Shown: in pieces, positions 6,512 through 15,038 of the stretch
How positions within the stretch are numbered: position 1 is the stretch's first letter
Layout: each line of letters opens with the position of its first letter
Origin: Promethearchaeota archaeon
GTDB taxonomy: Archaea > Asgardarchaeota > Lokiarchaeia > Sigyniarchaeales > SOKP01
Length of the DNA stretch: 15,750 nucleotides
Assembly (NCBI GenBank): GCA_016839705.1
Contig: JAEOTR010000068.1
Span: 1-15,750 of the forward strand
Reading direction: 5' to 3'
Notes under the pieces: model-generated
What the model was told of the DNA's origin: nothing
The model's database searches: none
Seen by the model: only the letters and a program-made list of their open reading frames with translations
Position numbers and translations under genes: made by a program

Positions 6512-9310
6512 TTGAAAATATGTATGTCTAAAGCGATCATCCAAAAAGCCTTTCAAGAAAAGTATACCACTAAAAATAAATTAGAGAAAAGCTGGCAGGA
6601 CTTCTTAAATAGAGACACTTATTTAACAATTGATGAAAAACGCAAATTTTTTAGTGAAATAAACCAATTGGCAAAATTTCCTCGACTTATTAAATTTAAA
6701 TTTAAAGCAAGAAGGGTGTTTAGAAAATTTAGGAAGGTTTTACACACCTTGATTGAAGAAATTAATACCTATAATGATTATTTTATTGAAAATCGTTTAA
6801 AAAATTGCCAATCCTTCTTAAATGGAAAGGATGATGGATTAAAGTATCCCTTAGATGAAGAACAAAAATTGGCTGTAATTAAGGATGATAAACATAACCT
6901 TGTAATTGCCGGGGCCGGTTCAGGGAAAACAAGTGTAATTTCTTCTAGAATGGCTTATTTGATTAGACGAAAGGATAAAGTTGATCAAGATAAAATATTA
7001 GCATTAGCATTCACTAAGGTAGCTGCTGATGAGATGAAGGAAAGGTTAAAAAAAAACTATGGTATTGAAATTGATATCTCAACGTTTCATGCTTTAGGAA
7101 GGAGCATCATAGAAGAGGAACTAGATCATAAACCTAAACTTATATTTAATGGTAATGAAAAAGAGATATACGAACTCATTGAAAAATTATTTATGGATGC
7201 CCTTAAGGAAGTTAAATATCAAAACATTCTTATAGAATATTTAGCATATCATTCAGAGCAAGAAGTTAAACCTGAATCATTTGAAAATAAAGTGGAATAT
7301 TATGAATATATGAGAAATAAAAACTATTCAACTCTTAATGATATTTCTGTGAAATCAATTTCTGAAAGGGATATTGGAAACTTTCTATTCTTGCATAATA
7401 TCAAATTCGAGTATGAACCATTGGTAGAATGGGTGGATGAGAGTGAAGAGGATAAAGAATACCATCCTGATTTTTATCTTCCTGAATATGATGTCTATAT
7501 TGAGCATTGGGGATTGAATAAGAGTAATCAAGTTCCAGAGTGGTTTACGAAAACTTCTGAAGAATATCTACAGTTAAGAAATTGGAAATTAGAACAATTT
7601 GAAACTCATAATAAAACCATTGTAGAAACATGGGATTATGAGCGTTTATCTGAGGAACTAATTCCAAATTTAAAGGAAAAGCTAAAGAAAGTAATTCCTA
7701 AATTAGAATTTATTCCATTAACTTATAGTGAGCTAGTTGAAAAAACATTTGAGTTTAAAGAGAAACGAAATGAGGTTGTCAAGCTAGTTGGAAACTTTAT
7801 AAAAATATCAAAATGTAATTTTTATACGGTGTCAGATATAACTGAGAGAATAAAAGCAAAAAAATATTCTAAAAAACAGAAATTATTCGGAGAATTGGCT
7901 CTTGAAGTGTATAGGAGATATCAAGATTACTTGAATACGGAAAATCGGATAGATTTCAATGATATGATTAACCTTGCCGTTGAATTAACAAAAAAAGAAC
8001 CAGAAAAGTATATTAGTAGATATGATCATGTTCTTGTCGATGAATTCCAAGATATTTCTTATCAGAGATTAGAATTGATCAAGTGTTTTGTTAATGATAA
8101 ATCAAATACGAAATTATTCTGTGTGGGTGATGATTGGCAAAGTATCTATCAATTTACAGGTAGCGACGTACGATTTTTTGTCAACTTTAAAGATTATTTT
8201 CCGAATCCTGAAATCACTTATCTAAGCAATAATTATCGAAGTAGTAAAACTATTGTAGGCATATCAAATAAGTTAATAGCCAATAATAAGAAACAAATTA
8301 TCAAAGAAACCCGTTCCACTCACGATATTGGAATGCAACCTATGTTTATTGATTTTACTTCAGGATTTAATTATAATCCTAAAATTCAATATGAAAATAT
8401 CTACAATCTTATCCAAATCCTATTAGATGATGGAGTTGAACCTCATGAGATTATGGTTTTATCACGGTTTAATAAATACTTAAGAGATTTGGAAATCTTT
8501 TGTGGTGCCAGAGGAGTTCCAACAGAATCAGAACATGGTGGAGTACGATTTTATAGCGCTCATAAATCAAAGGGCTCTGAAAGTCAGCATGTAATTCTAA
8601 CGGATATGACCTCTGGACTATACGGATTTCCATGCGAAATTCAAGATTCATCAGTAATGGAATTAGCGAAAAGATTTGAATCTGATGGCTTTATAGATGA
8701 AGAACGACGGCTTTTTTATGTATCTTTGACTCGAAGTAAGAAATTTCTCTATATTTACAGCATGGAACAGAGCAACTCTATGTTTCTAAATGAGATTAAT
8801 CCATATTTATTGAGATTACGATTAGATACCACAAATAGATGGGATGAAGGATTATCTGATTATATGAAGTCTTTTATTAAGGGAATTTTACCCGATATAC
8901 CAATATCCTGCCCTAACTGCGATAGCTTTTTAGTTAAAAGAACTGGAAAGAAAGGGAATTTCCTCGGATGTAGTCGCTACCCTAAATGTAATTATACTCA
9001 AGATTTAGAAAATCTATCTGAGAGATATGAAGATAAAAAAATCTTTACTATTGACTCTCTTCCAAGATTCTGTGAACAATGCGGAAAACCTTTAGCAATC
9101 CGGAAAGGCCCTTATGGAGGGTTTTTAGGATGTACAAGATATCCAAATTGTAAATTTACTTTCAATCTTAGTGATGATAAGCCAATTATTTGCCCAAGCT
9201 GTGGAAGCCCTCTTGTCGTAAGAAAAGGACAGTATGGAGCTTTTTTAGGATGTACGAACTATCCGAGATGTAAATTTTTGTTAGATAGCAAGAAATTCAG
9301 AAGAGGTTAA
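6512..9310 (+). CDS. SF1A DNA helicase (helicase IV/UvrD-like) with inserted PD-(D/E)xK-type nuclease-like domain and three C-terminal topoisomerase-type C4 zinc ribbons
   Basis: Q motif LDEEQ, Walker A AGAGSGKT (~6908-6931), Ia LAFT, STFH, Walker B VDEFQD, III VGDDWQSIYQF, IV NYRS, V HKSKGSE, VI EERRLFYVSLTRSK. Insert KSISE..IGNFL..FEYE..YHPDFYL..YIEHWG (~7350-7513). CxxC..GC..YPxC repeats start at 8909, 9071 and 9191. The true start may be ATG 6524. Confidence 0.92.
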   Translation: MKICMSKAIIQKAFQEKYTTKNKLEKSWQDFLNRDTYLTIDEKRKFFSEINQLAKFPRLIKFKFKARRVFRKFRKVLHTLIEEINTYNDYFIENRLKNCQSFLNGKDDGLKYPLDEEQKLAVIKDDKHNLVIAGAGSGKTSVISSRMAYLIRRKDKVDQDKILALAFTKVAADEMKERLKKNYGIEIDISTFHALGRSIIEEELDHKPKLIFNGNEKEIYELIEKLFMDALKEVKYQNILIEYLAYHSEQEVKPESFENKVEYYEYMRNKNYSTLNDISVKSISERDIGNFLFLHNIKFEYEPLVEWVDESEEDKEYHPDFYLPEYDVYIEHWGLNKSNQVPEWFTKTSEEYLQLRNWKLEQFETHNKTIVETWDYERLSEELIPNLKEKLKKVIPKLEFIPLTYSELVEKTFEFKEKRNEVVKLVGNFIKISKCNFYTVSDITERIKAKKYSKKQKLFGELALEVYRRYQDYLNTENRIDFNDMINLAVELTKKEPEKYISRYDHVLVDEFQDISYQRLELIKCFVNDKSNTKLFCVGDDWQSIYQFTGSDVRFFVNFKDYFPNPEITYLSNNYRSSKTIVGISNKLIANNKKQIIKETRSTHDIGMQPMFIDFTSGFNYNPKIQYENIYNLIQILLDDGVEPHEIMVLSRFNKYLRDLEIFCGARGVPTESEHGGVRFYSAHKSKGSESQHVILTDMTSGLYGFPCEIQDSSVMELAKRFESDGFIDEERRLFYVSLTRSKKFLYIYSMEQSNSMFLNEINPYLLRLRLDTTNRWDEGLSDYMKSFIKGILPDIPISCPNCDSFLVKRTGKKGNFLGCSRYPKCNYTQDLENLSERYEDKKIFTIDSLPRFCEQCGKPLAIRKGPYGGFLGCTRYPNCKFTFNLSDDKPIICPSCGSPLVVRKGQYGAFLGCTNYPRCKFLLDSKKFRRG

Positions 9311-9318
9311 AATGAATT

Positions 9319-9975
9319 ATGGCTGAAATCCCAAAGTTTTGCCCGAGATGCGGTAAACCATTAGAGATGAGAAAAGGAACTTATGGGACTTATCTAGATT
9401 GTACAGATTACCCCAAATGTAAATATACATATGATTTTTCTAGTAAAAATGTAGCTAAGACAACACAAAATGGCACAAACACACCTTCCTCGTGCCCAAA
9501 ATGCGGAAAAAAATTAGCATTATATATTGGAAAATACGGGATATTTCTTGGGTGTAATGGTTATCCCAAATGTAATTACTCACTAAACTTCGAGGATCCC
9601 TATAATATTACCTGTCCAAAATGCGGGAAAATCATGATAGAACGGACTGGAACTTATGGGATGTTCTATGGGTGTAAAGGGTATCCCAAATGTAAATTTA
9701 CCTTCGATCTAAGGGTAAAAGGAAAAACTAAGGAAAAAAAACCTGTAAAAAAGTTAGTTTTACCAGAGGGATACGGTTTTAAAGTTACGGGGGATGATAT
9801 ACTAGGTGCTCTGACTTGTGAGGGGCAAAATTTGCGTGGACTTGTAACTAAATTAGAACTAACTAATGAAGTAGATATTAATTACCTTAAACTCAAATTA
9901 AAGGAATTCGAACATAAAGGCTTTATAATCAAAAATTTTAATGATAACGAAACAATTTGGGAGAAAGTTAAATAA
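9319..9975 (+). CDS. Topoisomerase-type C4 zinc-ribbon repeat protein (3 repeats) with putative C-terminal winged-helix domain
   Basis: Three CPxCGxx..GxYG..C..YPKCxY/F repeats and a Lys-rich linker. The C-terminus ILGAL..NLRGLVTKL..YLKLKLKEFEHKGFI..NETIW is wHTH-like. It starts 8 nt after the helicase stop, with GAGGT at 9303-9307. Confidence 0.85.
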   Translation: MAEIPKFCPRCGKPLEMRKGTYGTYLDCTDYPKCKYTYDFSSKNVAKTTQNGTNTPSSCPKCGKKLALYIGKYGIFLGCNGYPKCNYSLNFEDPYNITCPKCGKIMIERTGTYGMFYGCKGYPKCKFTFDLRVKGKTKEKKPVKKLVLPEGYGFKVTGDDILGALTCEGQNLRGLVTKLELTNEVDINYLKLKLKEFEHKGFIIKNFNDNETIWEKVK

Positions 9976-10014
9976 ATTTCAAGTTAAGTTATATTTATAT
10001 TATATTTTTTAAAG

Positions 10015-10719
10015 GTGGTATATAGGTTATATATTATGAAATCAAATGATAATGATTTAAACATTCCAAAAACATGCCCTAAATGTGGTAGTGAATTAGA
10101 AGAACGTGAAGGGAAATATGGAAAATTCTTGGGATGCACTAATTTTCCAGAATGTCGTTATACGTTTGATTTGAGTGGTGATAATATCAGTCTTAAATGC
10201 CCTGATTGCGGTAAAAGTTTACGATTCCGAGATAGTCAATATGGAAGGTTTTTAAGCTGCAGTGGTTTTCCCGATTGTAAATTTGCGTTTAATCCAGAAT
10301 TTAAAGATCATCCTGATATCTTTTGCCCAAAATGTAATAAGACTTTAGAATTAGAGACCATTGAAGATAAAAAATATCTAACTTGTAAAGGAAAGCCCCA
10401 ATGTGATTTCAAGCTTGAATGGGTTGATTCCAAGCAGAAAATTACCAAAAGAGGTTATTATCCTAAATGTCCTGATTGCAGTAGTGAATTAGCGAAGCGT
10501 AGTGGTAAATTTGGGTCATTCCTAGGATGTGTTAGCTATCCAAATTGCAGATTTACGTTCGATCCCGAAAGAGAGAATCAAAGAGTTTTAAAGTGTCCTG
10601 AATGTGGAAAAGAGTTAGATATAAGGCTAGGAAAATATGGTAAATTTGTAGGATGTTCAGGATATCCTGAATGCAGATATATCTTTGATCTTAGGAGTTC
10701 GGAACCAAAACTAGATTGA
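10015..10719 (+). CDS. Topoisomerase-type C4 zinc-ribbon repeat protein (5 repeats; YrdD-like architecture)
   Basis: Five CPxC..C..[FY/K]PxC repeats, the third divergent (CPKCNKTLELETIEDKKYLTCKGKPQC). No catalytic domain. The start may be ATG 10036. Confidence 0.88.
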   Translation: MVYRLYIMKSNDNDLNIPKTCPKCGSELEEREGKYGKFLGCTNFPECRYTFDLSGDNISLKCPDCGKSLRFRDSQYGRFLSCSGFPDCKFAFNPEFKDHPDIFCPKCNKTLELETIEDKKYLTCKGKPQCDFKLEWVDSKQKITKRGYYPKCPDCSSELAKRSGKFGSFLGCVSYPNCRFTFDPERENQRVLKCPECGKELDIRLGKYGKFVGCSGYPECRYIFDLRSSEPKLD

Positions 10720-10807: not shown

Positions 10808-11104
10808 ATGAAAGAAATGATAACTACTCAAATAAGTATTAAAAGAAAACTGCTGTTAAAACAATATTTGAACGGTCAACTTGCGGTATATGTTAATGAT
10901 ATTAATAGTGAGCCAATAGCTGAACTTTCTATCATGCATAATTCTATAGATCTTGCTCCAAATGAATTTATTTTGAAAGATTATTCTGAGAATGAATATT
11001 TGGTGCAACAATGCTATGAATCAAACTTATTTACACCAACAGATAGATTTGTTTTAATCGGCTCACATCTCTGTCCTATATGTCAGATTAAGTCGGAAGT
11101 TTGA
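10808..11104 (+). CDS. Small hypothetical protein, DUF4313-like
   Basis: Pattern YxNGxxAV..EPIAxLS..L..NEFILKDYSENE..TDRFV.IG..CPIC resembles my recollection of DUF4313-type mobile-element proteins. The 3' end overlaps the convergent gene by 22 nt. Confidence 0.6.
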   Translation: MKEMITTQISIKRKLLLKQYLNGQLAVYVNDINSEPIAELSIMHNSIDLAPNEFILKDYSENEYLVQQCYESNLFTPTDRFVLIGSHLCPICQIKSEV

Positions 11105-12885
11105 AACTGCTGTAACGTTTTCACGAAATCTGTTGACTCGTTTGCACTTAAAATAAGCTTCTTCTTAGTACGAGTCATACCTACATAGAGTAACTGACGA
11201 TCTTGATCAGATTTATAGGTGTTGACTTCGGGGATTATGATGGTGTCCGCTTCTAATCCTTTTGTTCCGTGAAGGGTACCGATCAATAATCCTGGTGTTT
11301 TATAATCATAATCCATCAAATCTTTCCAATTTATATGTAATTGTCTTAAATAATCAAAAAAGGGATGTTCATATTTCCTTTTCGCCATGTTATATTTGAA
11401 TAGTACTAAGATTTCTTGAGGAGACTTCAAAAGGTTATTAATTTTATCAGCAAGCTTTCTGTACTCCTCATCTCGAGTTCTTGATAGAATAAACTCAAAT
11501 AATCCGTGTGTTCCTATGAATTCTTCTGTTGCTAGAAATTCATCAAATTTTCCAATTAATTCTTTTATAGCTTGAGGTAACGTTTCTTGAGCTATATATC
11601 CTATTTCAATGGGAGTACGATATGATTTCTGGAATCTTCTCACCCTACCCCTCGCTTGGATTCCAACATTCGACCAAAAAAATCTTTTTCGATCATATAT
11701 TCCTTGAAGACCGTCACAAGTAATCAATAAGGAATTAGATTTTGAATTTAAGACTTGCATGATGGATTTAAACCAACCTTCCTCAAAATCTTGGGCCTCA
11801 TCAATAAGGATGGCATCATAAGTTATCTTATCATCACCGAGAGCCGTTAACATTTCTAATAATAATCCGGGTACTTTTTTATTGAAAAATTCATCGAACC
11901 CATTTTCCCGTCTGGCTTTATTTTCTGCTTCCAGATACAATCTTGAATACTCATTATCGGGACTCAGAATATAACTTCTGGCCCATGCATGAAAATTATT
12001 AATTGTTACATCAGCATCGTAATCTTGCGGGTTCAATAAGTGGAAAAGTAACATTTTCAATCTTTTATTATAACATAATACGAGAATTCTCCAATTTGGA
12101 TGCCGGAGAGCTAATATTCTTGCACGGGCAATTAAAAGGACCGTTTTTCCACTTCCAGCAACCCCAAATATCAGTCTATGGCCCTCCCCCATTACCCTTG
12201 CTAAGCTTTCTTGCTCTTCGTCTAAGAGTTTAATCCTATCCTCGATTGAGAAATATTCAAGTAAGTCAGTCTGTTTTAAATCAGGTAATCGACAGGTCGG
12301 GATAATATTTGCTCTTAGCACCTTAAACTGTTCTTCAGAGAGATAAGCATTTACTGGTATAATGCCAATCATAAATTCCTCAAAATTGTCATTTCTCTTC
12401 AACGTTTCTTTAAAGCTTACGTGAATTTTACTCGGTAAAAGTGCTCGGATCCCTCCAGCGGCATAACTACTCTCTGAAATTTGGCTAAATGCTACTAATC
12501 GGGTTATAGGAATATACACATCCTCAGGAAAGTGACAATATCCTATTCGATCTTTAATAGCACGCCAATATTGATACAGTTGATCAAATGGATTATCTAA
12601 TAATATTGGCTTCTCATCTTTTAATCTTTCCCATTTACCCGTTTTTGGTGTAGTCTTTAAATACCTTTCGGAGTAATCCTTGACTTCTACGATTAGAATC
12701 CCGTGTTGTGGTGAGAGAATAACAAAATCTGGATGTAAATCTCCAATATACGGCTCGAAATAAGCAATTATATGATTTTGCTTATCAAAAAAGTTGACAA
12801 TTCGGTTATAGACCATCCGCTCCCCATCGGTCGTCGTTGAAGGTGGTTTGCTCAGGAAATTTACCATATATTCAAGTAAAAGCAA
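11083..12885 (-). CDS. NERD nuclease domain fused to SF1 (UvrD-like) helicase/ATPase
   Basis: N-terminal GE..EP..HPDFVILSPQHGILIVEVKD..NPFDQ (NERD, PD-(D/E)xK). Walker A GVAGSGKT, LCYN, Walker B IDEAQD, DGLQGIY, SYRT, TLHGTKGLEAD, LLYVGMTRTK. Likely start ATG 12867. Confidence 0.92.
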   Translation of the reverse strand: MLLLEYMVNFLSKPPSTTTDGERMVYNRIVNFFDKQNHIIAYFEPYIGDLHPDFVILSPQHGILIVEVKDYSERYLKTTPKTGKWERLKDEKPILLDNPFDQLYQYWRAIKDRIGYCHFPEDVYIPITRLVAFSQISESSYAAGGIRALLPSKIHVSFKETLKRNDNFEEFMIGIIPVNAYLSEEQFKVLRANIIPTCRLPDLKQTDLLEYFSIEDRIKLLDEEQESLARVMGEGHRLIFGVAGSGKTVLLIARARILALRHPNWRILVLCYNKRLKMLLFHLLNPQDYDADVTINNFHAWARSYILSPDNEYSRLYLEAENKARRENGFDEFFNKKVPGLLLEMLTALGDDKITYDAILIDEAQDFEEGWFKSIMQVLNSKSNSLLITCDGLQGIYDRKRFFWSNVGIQARGRVRRFQKSYRTPIEIGYIAQETLPQAIKELIGKFDEFLATEEFIGTHGLFEFILSRTRDEEYRKLADKINNLLKSPQEILVLFKYNMAKRKYEHPFFDYLRQLHINWKDLMDYDYKTPGLLIGTLHGTKGLEADTIIIPEVNTYKSDQDRQLLYVGMTRTKKKLILSANESTDFVKTLQQFQTSDLI

Positions 12886-13970: not shown

Positions 13971-14237
13971 ATGAATGATAAAGGAAATAAAAGGTTCAAT
14001 TCTGCTGAAAAAGTTATATTATTTACTGGAATATTATTAATAGCATTGTCTTTTATAAGCGAATTTAATTTTCATTATTTTCAAGGATTTATGCCAGATG
14101 TAGTGGACGAAAGTATTTTCTGGAGAGCGGAGGCTGCTGAAGTTTTTAATTCCATGAGTTTTCTGATCATAGGCATACTCTTAATAATCATTGCCTTTAT
14201 CATCTCAAAAAAAAGATTGAGAGGATATAAGGACTAA
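13971..14237 (+). CDS. Small two-TM membrane protein
   Basis: Two hydrophobic helices with basic N- and C-termini and an acidic/aromatic loop. Confidence 0.7.
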   Translation: MNDKGNKRFNSAEKVILFTGILLIALSFISEFNFHYFQGFMPDVVDESIFWRAEAAEVFNSMSFLIIGILLIIIAFIISKKRLRGYKD

Positions 14238-14387
14238 TAGTGTTATTTGGTGACTTTATCTTATTTTACATAGTCTGCAGATAAGAAGATTTTAGAATTA
14301 AATTGCTTAAATTATTAATGCAAGTTTTAAATAAGTTTGACTACATATTGATTACACTACACAAATTAAGATAAAGAGGTAATATCG

Positions 14388-15038
14388 TTGTTTAAAAAAT
14401 TTATGGATAATGTTTCTAATGCTTTAGGATTGACTAGTAATAAGATTAGTGAAATAGTAAAAGAGGGCAATCATTATATAAGTGCTGAGGAAAACGTGAC
14501 AAAAGATATTAACAAAACCGTAACAGCCTTAAAAGCTTATGCAGATACAGAAACGCCCTCATTAGGTGAAGCGATAGGATCTCTAGCTAATACGTTTGAA
14601 ATCATTGAAACTGAGCGTAATGAAAAAATAAATAAGTTGCGAGAGCAATACATTGCCCCATTGAATGATTTGATTATAAATCTAAAGACTTTACAAACTG
14701 AACAAACTGAGTCAGCTAAAGCAGCTAAAGAAGTTGAAAAAGCTGAAAAATCGCTTAAAAAATCCCAAAGCAAGCCAAAGGAAAAACTTAAACCCGGAGA
14801 AGTTGAAAATGCAGAAAAAGCATTAAAAGCAGCTCAACAAAAAGCGGAAAAAGAAGAAGCTGATGTGAGGACTGCTACAGAAAATTTTAATAAGGTGAAG
14901 TTGGAAACAATGCAGAAGGTCCTCCAAAACATGGTAGATATCGAAAAAACATATCATGAAAAGATATTAACGGCGATCTCAGGAGTTCAACAAAAAGCTG
15001 AAGCCATTAAAATCGAGGAAGAATCAAAAGTAACATAA
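14388..15038 (+). CDS. BAR-domain-like all-helical protein resembling FAM92/CIBAR, with N-terminal amphipathic helix
   Basis: TTG start with GAGGT at 14376-14380. 216 aa in three long helices. AYADTETPSL, R..KL..YIAPL kink, Lys-rich tip loop, ENF.K.KL..IE..YH.K.L. Confidence 0.75.
   Translation: MFKKFMDNVSNALGLTSNKISEIVKEGNHYISAEENVTKDINKTVTALKAYADTETPSLGEAIGSLANTFEIIETERNEKINKLREQYIAPLNDLIINLKTLQTEQTESAKAAKEVEKAEKSLKKSQSKPKEKLKPGEVENAEKALKAAQQKAEKEEADVRTATENFNKVKLETMQKVLQNMVDIEKTYHEKILTAISGVQQKAEAIKIEEESKVT

Follow-up and report, generated by a model that had tools for sequence, protein, structure and literature searches.

The BAR gene and its locus

The window, by which we mean the whole stretch of 15,750 nucleotides analysed, contains an intact open reading frame (14388-15038, forward strand, 216 codons) that begins with TTG and encodes a stand-alone classical BAR protein of a FAM92-like family of Lokiarchaeia (Table 1). 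The TTG start is supported by the GAGGT motif located 7 nt upstream and by 17 relatives that carry ATG, GTG or TTG at the equivalent codon. Motifs of the AGGTG or AAGTG type occupy the equivalent upstream place in relatives, and the database entry for the protein (P0001) begins five codons downstream of the TTG. The segment AYADTETPSL, which a sequence-only reading of this DNA had placed from position 14535, starts at that coordinate in the translation. In the window, the gene has a DinB gene on one side and a gene for a small membrane protein on the other. No conserved gene neighbourhood or operon was found among 41 loci of the family, and a sigma-70 promoter scan at the gene stayed at chance level, the sigma-70 consensus not being apt for archaea. 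Viral copies of the family were looked for and none was found; the same was true of a second BAR gene in the host's own genome (93% complete).

The remainder of the window holds several unusual genes. An Arf-family small GTPase fused to PAS domains (window:3-3350, reverse strand, 1116+ aa) runs off the contig; its tail comprises a probable GAF domain and a degenerate histidine-kinase-like region, and paralogues occur in the genome. At 6512-10719 (forward strand), a UvrD helicase gene whose product bears topoisomerase-type zinc ribbons at its C-terminus precedes two genes that consist almost wholly of these ribbons (three and five repeats). A NERD nuclease-UvrD-like helicase fusion (11083-12885, reverse strand) is convergent on this cluster, and together they form a possible defence or repair island.

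Table 1. Features of the BAR gene, in window coordinates.
Feature	Position	Strand	Basis
CDS, 216-aa stand-alone classical BAR protein, Lokiarchaeia FAM92-like family	14388..15038	+	Pfam, homologues, PDB search, AlphaFold2, Foldseek
GAGGT, ribosome-binding-site-like motif	14376..14380	+	7 nt upstream of TTG start
Basic amphipathic N-terminal segment, residues 1-14, candidate membrane-inserting (H0-like) helix	14388..14429	+	hydrophobic moment
Helix 1 (about residues 15-52), predicted dimer interface	14430..14543	+	dimer prediction, AlphaFold2, alignment
YADTETPSL helix 1-helix 2 turn motif, common with FAM92	14538..14564	+	alignment
Helix 2 with R77, P91 at the kink (14658-14660) and, leading to the tip, the lysine stripe K111/K114/K118/K121/K125	14556..14771	+	AlphaFold2, alignment
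Basic tip loop K125, K129, K131, K133, K135, equivalent of the FAM92A R132/R134/R136 patch	14760..14792	+	alignment; outside predicted dimer interface
Helix 3 with F167, K171, H190; predicted antiparallel helix 3-helix 3' interface centred on H190	14799..15002	+	dimer prediction, AlphaFold2, alignment

The host is a member of Lokiarchaeia (genome of 3.36 Mb, 93% complete), of the same order as the closed 6,035,313-bp genome bearing L. ossiferum UYP47554.1. Eukaryotic contamination was rejected: the GC content of the contig (30.8%) fits that of the genome (31.4%), the tetranucleotide correlation is 0.984, and the BAR gene and its flanks recur with zero differences on a contig that the same study obtained from a different sample. 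Moreover, the protein has 208 archaeal homologues, including some in closed genomes of cultured Lokiarchaeia. The sequence-only reading had named a contaminated contig, or a best match to generic coiled coils or PspA/ESCRT-III proteins, as outcomes that would count against it, and neither was observed; PspA and Snf7 were absent among Pfam matches up to an E-value of 10. The lysine- and glutamate-rich helical composition is the only feature in favour of contamination or of a generic coiled coil or PspA/ESCRT-III protein, and we consider these explanations extremely improbable. The intergenic stretch upstream of dinB (window:15057-15201) was the sole part shared with contigs of two other samples, which diverge on both sides of it, and positions 14050-14165 were matched by several deeper, divergent contigs; in both cases the contigs probably derive from related genomes with different neighbours.

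Predicted fold and dimer

BAR domains are banana-shaped dimers, with which eukaryotes sense and bend membranes. The AlphaFold2 monomer (pLDDT 91.6) comprises helices 2-52, 57-128 and 138-205, and AlphaFold2, Foldseek and VIA concur on three long antiparallel helices with a kinked helix 2, the hallmark of the classical BAR fold. The best Foldseek match of the monomer was FAM92A (9uhd; TM 0.88, rmsd 1.9), with rmsd values of 7-8 for I-BAR and 12-16 for F-BAR domains. The first 37 rows returned by VIA all belonged to the BAR superfamily, arfaptin (Z 17.3, rmsd 2.4) ranking above SNX5, FAM92A and BIN1 (15.6-15.7; FAM92A 15.7), and a non-exhaustive structure search of the Atlas named BAR families other than FAM92. 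The earlier remark that length, a helix-2 proline kink and a basic tip loop fit a BAR protein holds, given 216 residues, P91 and a tip patch with approximately 80% K/R. P91 is kept in 87% of the archaeal rows and corresponds to the proline at the kink of FAM92A (mouse P167, human P98; mouse numbering was converted to human by subtracting 69 and checked against PMC11266426). The conservation of the turn motif in archaeal and eukaryotic rows, respectively, was 86% and 100% for E55, 67% and 71% for P57, and 63% and 92% for L59.

Two copies of the protein were predicted to form an antiparallel homodimer with a score of 0.79, compared to 0.01 for the best of three controls; among proteins of known structure, 20 of 30 pairs and one of 23 single chains attained the mark set for this score. 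The runs agreed in at least 97% of contacts, with pLDDT values of at least 89. The predicted contacts (23-47, 33-37, 190-190 and 176-204) join helix 1 to helix 1' and helix 3 to helix 3', and 19 of the 20 dimer-interface positions of FAM92A fall within this interface. Because the FAM92A dimer has already been solved, the positive prediction may reflect likeness rather than binding. Of the expected dimer with a basic concave face, the antiparallel homodimer was predicted, and a FAM92-like basic concave surface was not confirmed. Taken together, the models support a classical BAR-fold protein that would dimerise in antiparallel fashion on the same interface positions as FAM92A.

Sequence kinship with FAM92/CIBAR

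Pfam FAM92 (PF06730) was matched over residues 14-209 with an E-value of 4.6e-8 and 33.2 bits (cut-off 23.6), and BAR_3 remained under its cut-off in the same scan; PF06730 was also matched by 37 of 60 family members. A PDB sequence search returned CIBAR1 with an E-value of 1e-8, the next match being at 0.07, and a profile of 60 archaeal sequences searched against the PDB scored CIBAR1 at 83 and 78 bits, amphiphysin at 27 and arfaptin at 21. An exhaustive phmmer search of 1.84 billion proteins gave 72 matches, among which the four recognisably eukaryotic ones were all FAM92. The profile-profile alignment to FAM92 extended over 204 columns and was broken once, by a gap of two residues at the tip (probability 99.3, E 1.6e-20); the identity to FAM92A is approximately 19%. 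The human FAM92A segments quoted in the sequence-only reading were identical to PDB chain 8ceg letter for letter, both quoted blocks aligned without gaps, and the proposed resemblance to FAM92/CIBAR was confirmed by the Pfam, profile and phmmer searches. An HMM built from archaeal sequences only gave eukaryotic FAM92 proteins 50-90 bits; since these scores fell to 2 or less on reversal and to 11 or less after heptad-block shuffling, the match is not a coiled-coil artefact. Generic Asgard coiled coils yielded merely scattered partial Pfam matches. The alternative subtype that had been suggested, SNX-BAR-like, was not sustained: Vps5 (PF09325) was not matched, and the 216-aa protein has no PX domain.

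These comparisons support FAM92/CIBAR as the closest non-archaeal relative of the protein by sequence. The claimed specificity for FAM92 therefore stood at the level of the nearest sequence match, but was weaker by fold, where arfaptin ranked first, and in the deep members of the family, with generic BAR or BAR_3 outscoring FAM92 in five out of ten. The latter result would also be expected if FAM92 were only the least-diverged eukaryotic BAR family and the archaeal proteins branched outside many, or even all, of the classical BAR families instead of being sister to FAM92; a BAR Pfam score of 55 bits for the MK-D1-like tandem protein and language-model scores that barely separate FAM92 (0.91) from BIN3 (0.89) point in the same direction, and our trees carry no other BAR families as an outgroup. 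Such an origin, however, accounts poorly for the 56-bit gap between CIBAR1 and the next BAR protein in the profile search, for the nearly gap-free co-linearity, for the residues common to the archaeal family and FAM92 (YAxxETPxL, R77, P91, F167, K171 and H190) and for the exclusive appearance of FAM92 among the eukaryotic phmmer matches. We regard it as rather unlikely, and a true sister relationship between FAM92 and the Lokiarchaeia family as fairly likely.

Distribution, tandem relatives and phylogeny

Among 400 Asgard genomes, family matches were found in 45 of 134 genomes of the host's own family, 13 of 19 in other families of its order and two of seven in three further families. The remaining 239 genomes, which presumably include the classes nearest to eukaryotes, gave two spurious matches only, in a search that scored few candidates per genome and also missed the published Thorarchaeia Vps5-BAR. 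All 40 genomes with a match over the FAM92 cut-off lie within the host's own order. Within the limited reach of these searches, the family was thus found only in Lokiarchaeia, where its distribution is patchy and broadly tracks host taxonomy. The gene looks dispensable, since many 97-100% complete genomes of the host's own genus lack a match, and we infer that it is accessory and present in a single copy in its host, encoding neither a ciliary nor a core division protein. Candidate outgroup BAR proteins from other Asgard classes were discarded, as their Vps5 or BAR_3 matches corresponded to generic coiled coils, TrmB-coiled-coil proteins and a tRNA ligase.

Several relatives depart from the stand-alone architecture. 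Tandem BAR-BAR genes encoding single chains of 451-547 aa were located at L061:4208-5563 (+), L062:3645-5288 (-), L064:4682-6058 (-) and L076:2898-4394 (+). Their hosts are L. ossiferum (two such genes and a single-domain copy, L063:4663-5325), a closed 4.36-Mb MK-D1-like genome and relatives. The N- and C-terminal halves mostly group separately in trees, and one of these proteins was predicted to fold as a single unit (pTM 0.78 over 451 aa). Foldseek returned no match below an E-value of 0.001 for this model, with FAM92A chains in rows 2-3 (TM 0.85-0.90 by target). The models are consistent with the tandem protein being a single-chain pseudo-dimer. A HEAT-repeat protein with a C-terminal BAR domain of the family (P0160) is encoded at L071:2405-3952 (+). 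Three divergent BAR-family genes stand in a row at L057:4941-7411 (+), in a genome from a different order of Lokiarchaeia; they score 43-54 bits on the family HMM, show acidic N-termini and a weak tip patch, and one scanned gene was without a Pfam match.

The phylogeny was built from 61 rows of the archaeal family and eukaryotic FAM92, the latter sampled from animals, Amoebozoa and one probable fungus (Amorphea only), and is unrooted. Host families were largely monophyletic (98/92 for f1 and 98/97 for f4), and eukaryotic FAM92, set apart from the archaeal rows by a branch with 100/100 support and a length of 1.4, attached in a polytomy. Neither eukaryotes as the outgroup (p-AU 0.41) nor eukaryotes grouped with the host's own family (0.37) was rejected, and in an incomplete run of a non-reversible root test, the roots differed by approximately two log units. 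A metagenome scan for protist FAM92 yielded one full-length sequence. An intronless, AT-rich eukaryotic FAM92 homologue (L113:994-1710, forward strand; Pfam 53.6 bits) adjoins a NAC-alpha-like gene and probably stems from an anaerobic fungus.

Recent transfer was excluded. An ancient transfer from an early eukaryote into the ancestor of Lokiarchaeia, under which the family would be silent on the archaeal origin of BAR domains, would agree with the broad occurrence of FAM92 in eukaryotes (animals, Amoebozoa, a probable fungus and oomycetes) and with the lack of convincing matches to the archaeal family, within the limited reach of the search, in the other 239 Asgard genomes. Yet the archaeal rows are not nested in the sampled (Amorphea) eukaryotic FAM92, from which the long, fully supported stem divides them. 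Moreover, the gene tree recovers host families and takes in a second order; a transfer, if there was one, must therefore be older than the radiation of the class. We consider this history improbable. Three histories remain: the gene was inherited vertically and lost in other lineages, it was passed to the stem of the eukaryotes, or it came from eukaryotes by an ancient transfer. The suggestion that the protein bears on the origin of eukaryotic curvature machinery is therefore retained in part: the gene is archaeal, but as the searches located the family in Lokiarchaeia only, its bearing depends on the root of the tree.

Putative membrane-binding surface and proposed action

FAM92A binds liposomes via five basic clusters, and mutation of the central helix-1 cluster removes approximately 90% of binding (PMC12269497). 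The human central patch (R39, K40, R43, R45 and K47) corresponds here to S, A, N, T and D at positions 32, 33, 36, 38 and 40, with none of the five basic residues kept; these positions are K/R in 4-18% of archaeal rows versus 89% in eukaryotic rows. The nearby K25, K39 and K43 may partly substitute for it. Overall, four of the 16 alignable lipid-binding basic residues of FAM92A are kept, and the net charge of the core is -2 versus a median of +3 in eukaryotic FAM92. The tip patch is better preserved (K125, Q127 and K129 for human R132, R134 and R136), being K/R in 79-80% of archaeal and 80% of eukaryotic rows, and the archaeal family conserves the lysine stripe leading to the tip as well as K25, K39 and K49 in helix 1. 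The N-terminal segment has a hydrophobic moment of 0.66, the highest of 203 windows (shuffle p 0.001), and the family median is 0.62-0.75 versus 0.33 in eukaryotic FAM92. Residues 1-10 have a pLDDT of 58, and the model draws the segment as continuous with helix 1. The segment aligns with the residues that open helix 1 of FAM92A, its residue 9 lies in the predicted interface, and it may simply pack on the bundle.

We propose that the protein is a homologue of eukaryotic BAR domains, of the classical type, which stands alone in the cytoplasm and whose dimer would form a crescent of classical-BAR curvature. It would bind anionic archaeal lipids mainly via its two lysine-rich tips and the stripes along its arms, the amphipathic N-terminal helix of each monomer possibly adding to membrane binding and the central basic patch playing no part. 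The dimer may sense or stabilise curved membrane, such as the necks, branch points and constrictions of protrusions and vesicles. On the predicted models, a FAM92-related dimer that binds curved membrane by its tips and N-terminus, and not by a central patch, is probable, and the sequence features suggest a classical, possibly N-BAR-like, curvature sensor. Two unnamed BAR proteins were present, below significance, in the Lokiactin co-immunoprecipitate of L. ossiferum (PMC13716822).

The top VIA rank of arfaptin raises the question of whether the dimer serves chiefly to scaffold other proteins or as an effector of small GTPases, with membrane binding that is weak or mediated by partners. The arfaptin sequence match is weak (21 bits versus 83), and although the host encodes at least 48 ORFs with small-GTPase motifs, GTPases neighbour the gene at nine of 41 loci, approximately as expected from their abundance, with no conserved operon. 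The lack of a central basic patch, the slightly negative net charge and the HEAT-BAR fusion among relatives would suit a scaffold, but tip lysines and an amphipathic N-terminus are kept across the family, and we judge this role unlikely compared to membrane binding by tips and N-terminus.

The ciliary connection of the sequence-only reading was not upheld by its expected partner: no Chibby homologue (CBY1, PF14645) exceeded the cut-off in the host genome (93% complete), in two closed relatives or in one near-complete relative, in which a remote homologue is possible. Given the loss of the central patch, the changed surface and the Chibby result, the protein falls outside FAM92 in the functional sense.

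Implications

BAR proteins count among the 'eukaryotic signature proteins' of Asgard archaea, and the FAM92/CIBAR subtype serves ciliogenesis and cristae shaping in eukaryotes. A more far-reaching and doubtful reading takes the Lokiarchaeia BAR protein as the archaeal sister or source of FAM92/CIBAR, predating eukaryotes, with N-BAR-like bending by tips and amphipathic helix and with tandem pseudo-dimers in cultured species. If this held, it would provide a testable pre-eukaryotic curvature machine for actin-filled protrusions. If the sister relation is true, the FAM92 lineage of BAR proteins would predate cilia, and the restriction to Lokiarchaeia would call for repeated loss in other Asgards or for transfer. 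With FAM92A as a solved template and its lipid-binding and dimer mutants mapped, membrane bending by an archaeal BAR protein becomes a concrete experiment, and homologues are carried by the cultured L. ossiferum and by MK-D1-like genomes.

Comparison with known systems

The protein is a further member of a known family, annotated as BAR since 2015. KKK45550.1 of Lokiarchaeum sp. GC14_75, annotated 'BAR domain protein' in the 2015 genome, is 65-66% identical over the full length (E 2e-77) and has the same stand-alone architecture, with no difference of kind; the protein is itself nested in a 99-supported clade holding P0077 of the family. A Lokiarchaeum 'putative BAR domain protein' is discussed in a review (PMC4917890), and the asCOG cog.007079 'BAR domain', which has members in both MK-D1 and L. 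ossiferum (PMC9834061 supplement), is a candidate equivalent of the family. The statement of the sequence-only reading that BAR-like proteins had been noted in Lokiarchaeota agrees with these records. We found no paper linking Asgard or Lokiarchaeia BAR proteins to FAM92/CIBAR, no FAM92 in the supplements of Eme 2023, Tobiasson 2026 and Kostlbacher 2024, and no published biochemistry or structure for the family in the literature; Pfam annotation shows FAM92 for most family members. New here are the quantified affinity to FAM92 and its limits, the central-patch loss, the restriction to Lokiarchaeia and the tandem forms in cultured species.

The Thorarchaeia Vps5-BAR-Vps28 fusions reported as BAR-type (Eme et al. 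2023, PMC10307638) belong to another class, differ in architecture and are unmatched by the Lokiarchaeia family profile. SNX-BAR/Vps5 proteins differ in their PX domain and Pfam family, as described above. With N-BAR proteins (amphiphysin, endophilin and BIN3), the protein shares the classical BAR fold and a candidate N-terminal amphipathic helix, but the sequence match is far weaker (at most 27 bits) and SH3 is lacking. FAM92A/CIBAR1 and FAM92B/CIBAR2 (PF06730; 9uhd, 8ceg) resemble it in fold, length, register, turn motif, kink proline, tip patch and interface positions. In contrast to them, the archaeal protein lacks the central basic patch and two further patches, as well as the acidic disordered C-terminal tail, and its host has neither cilia nor mitochondria. 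On the other hand, it adds an amphipathic N-terminus, whereas FAM92A1 is without an additional N-terminal helix (PMC11266426).
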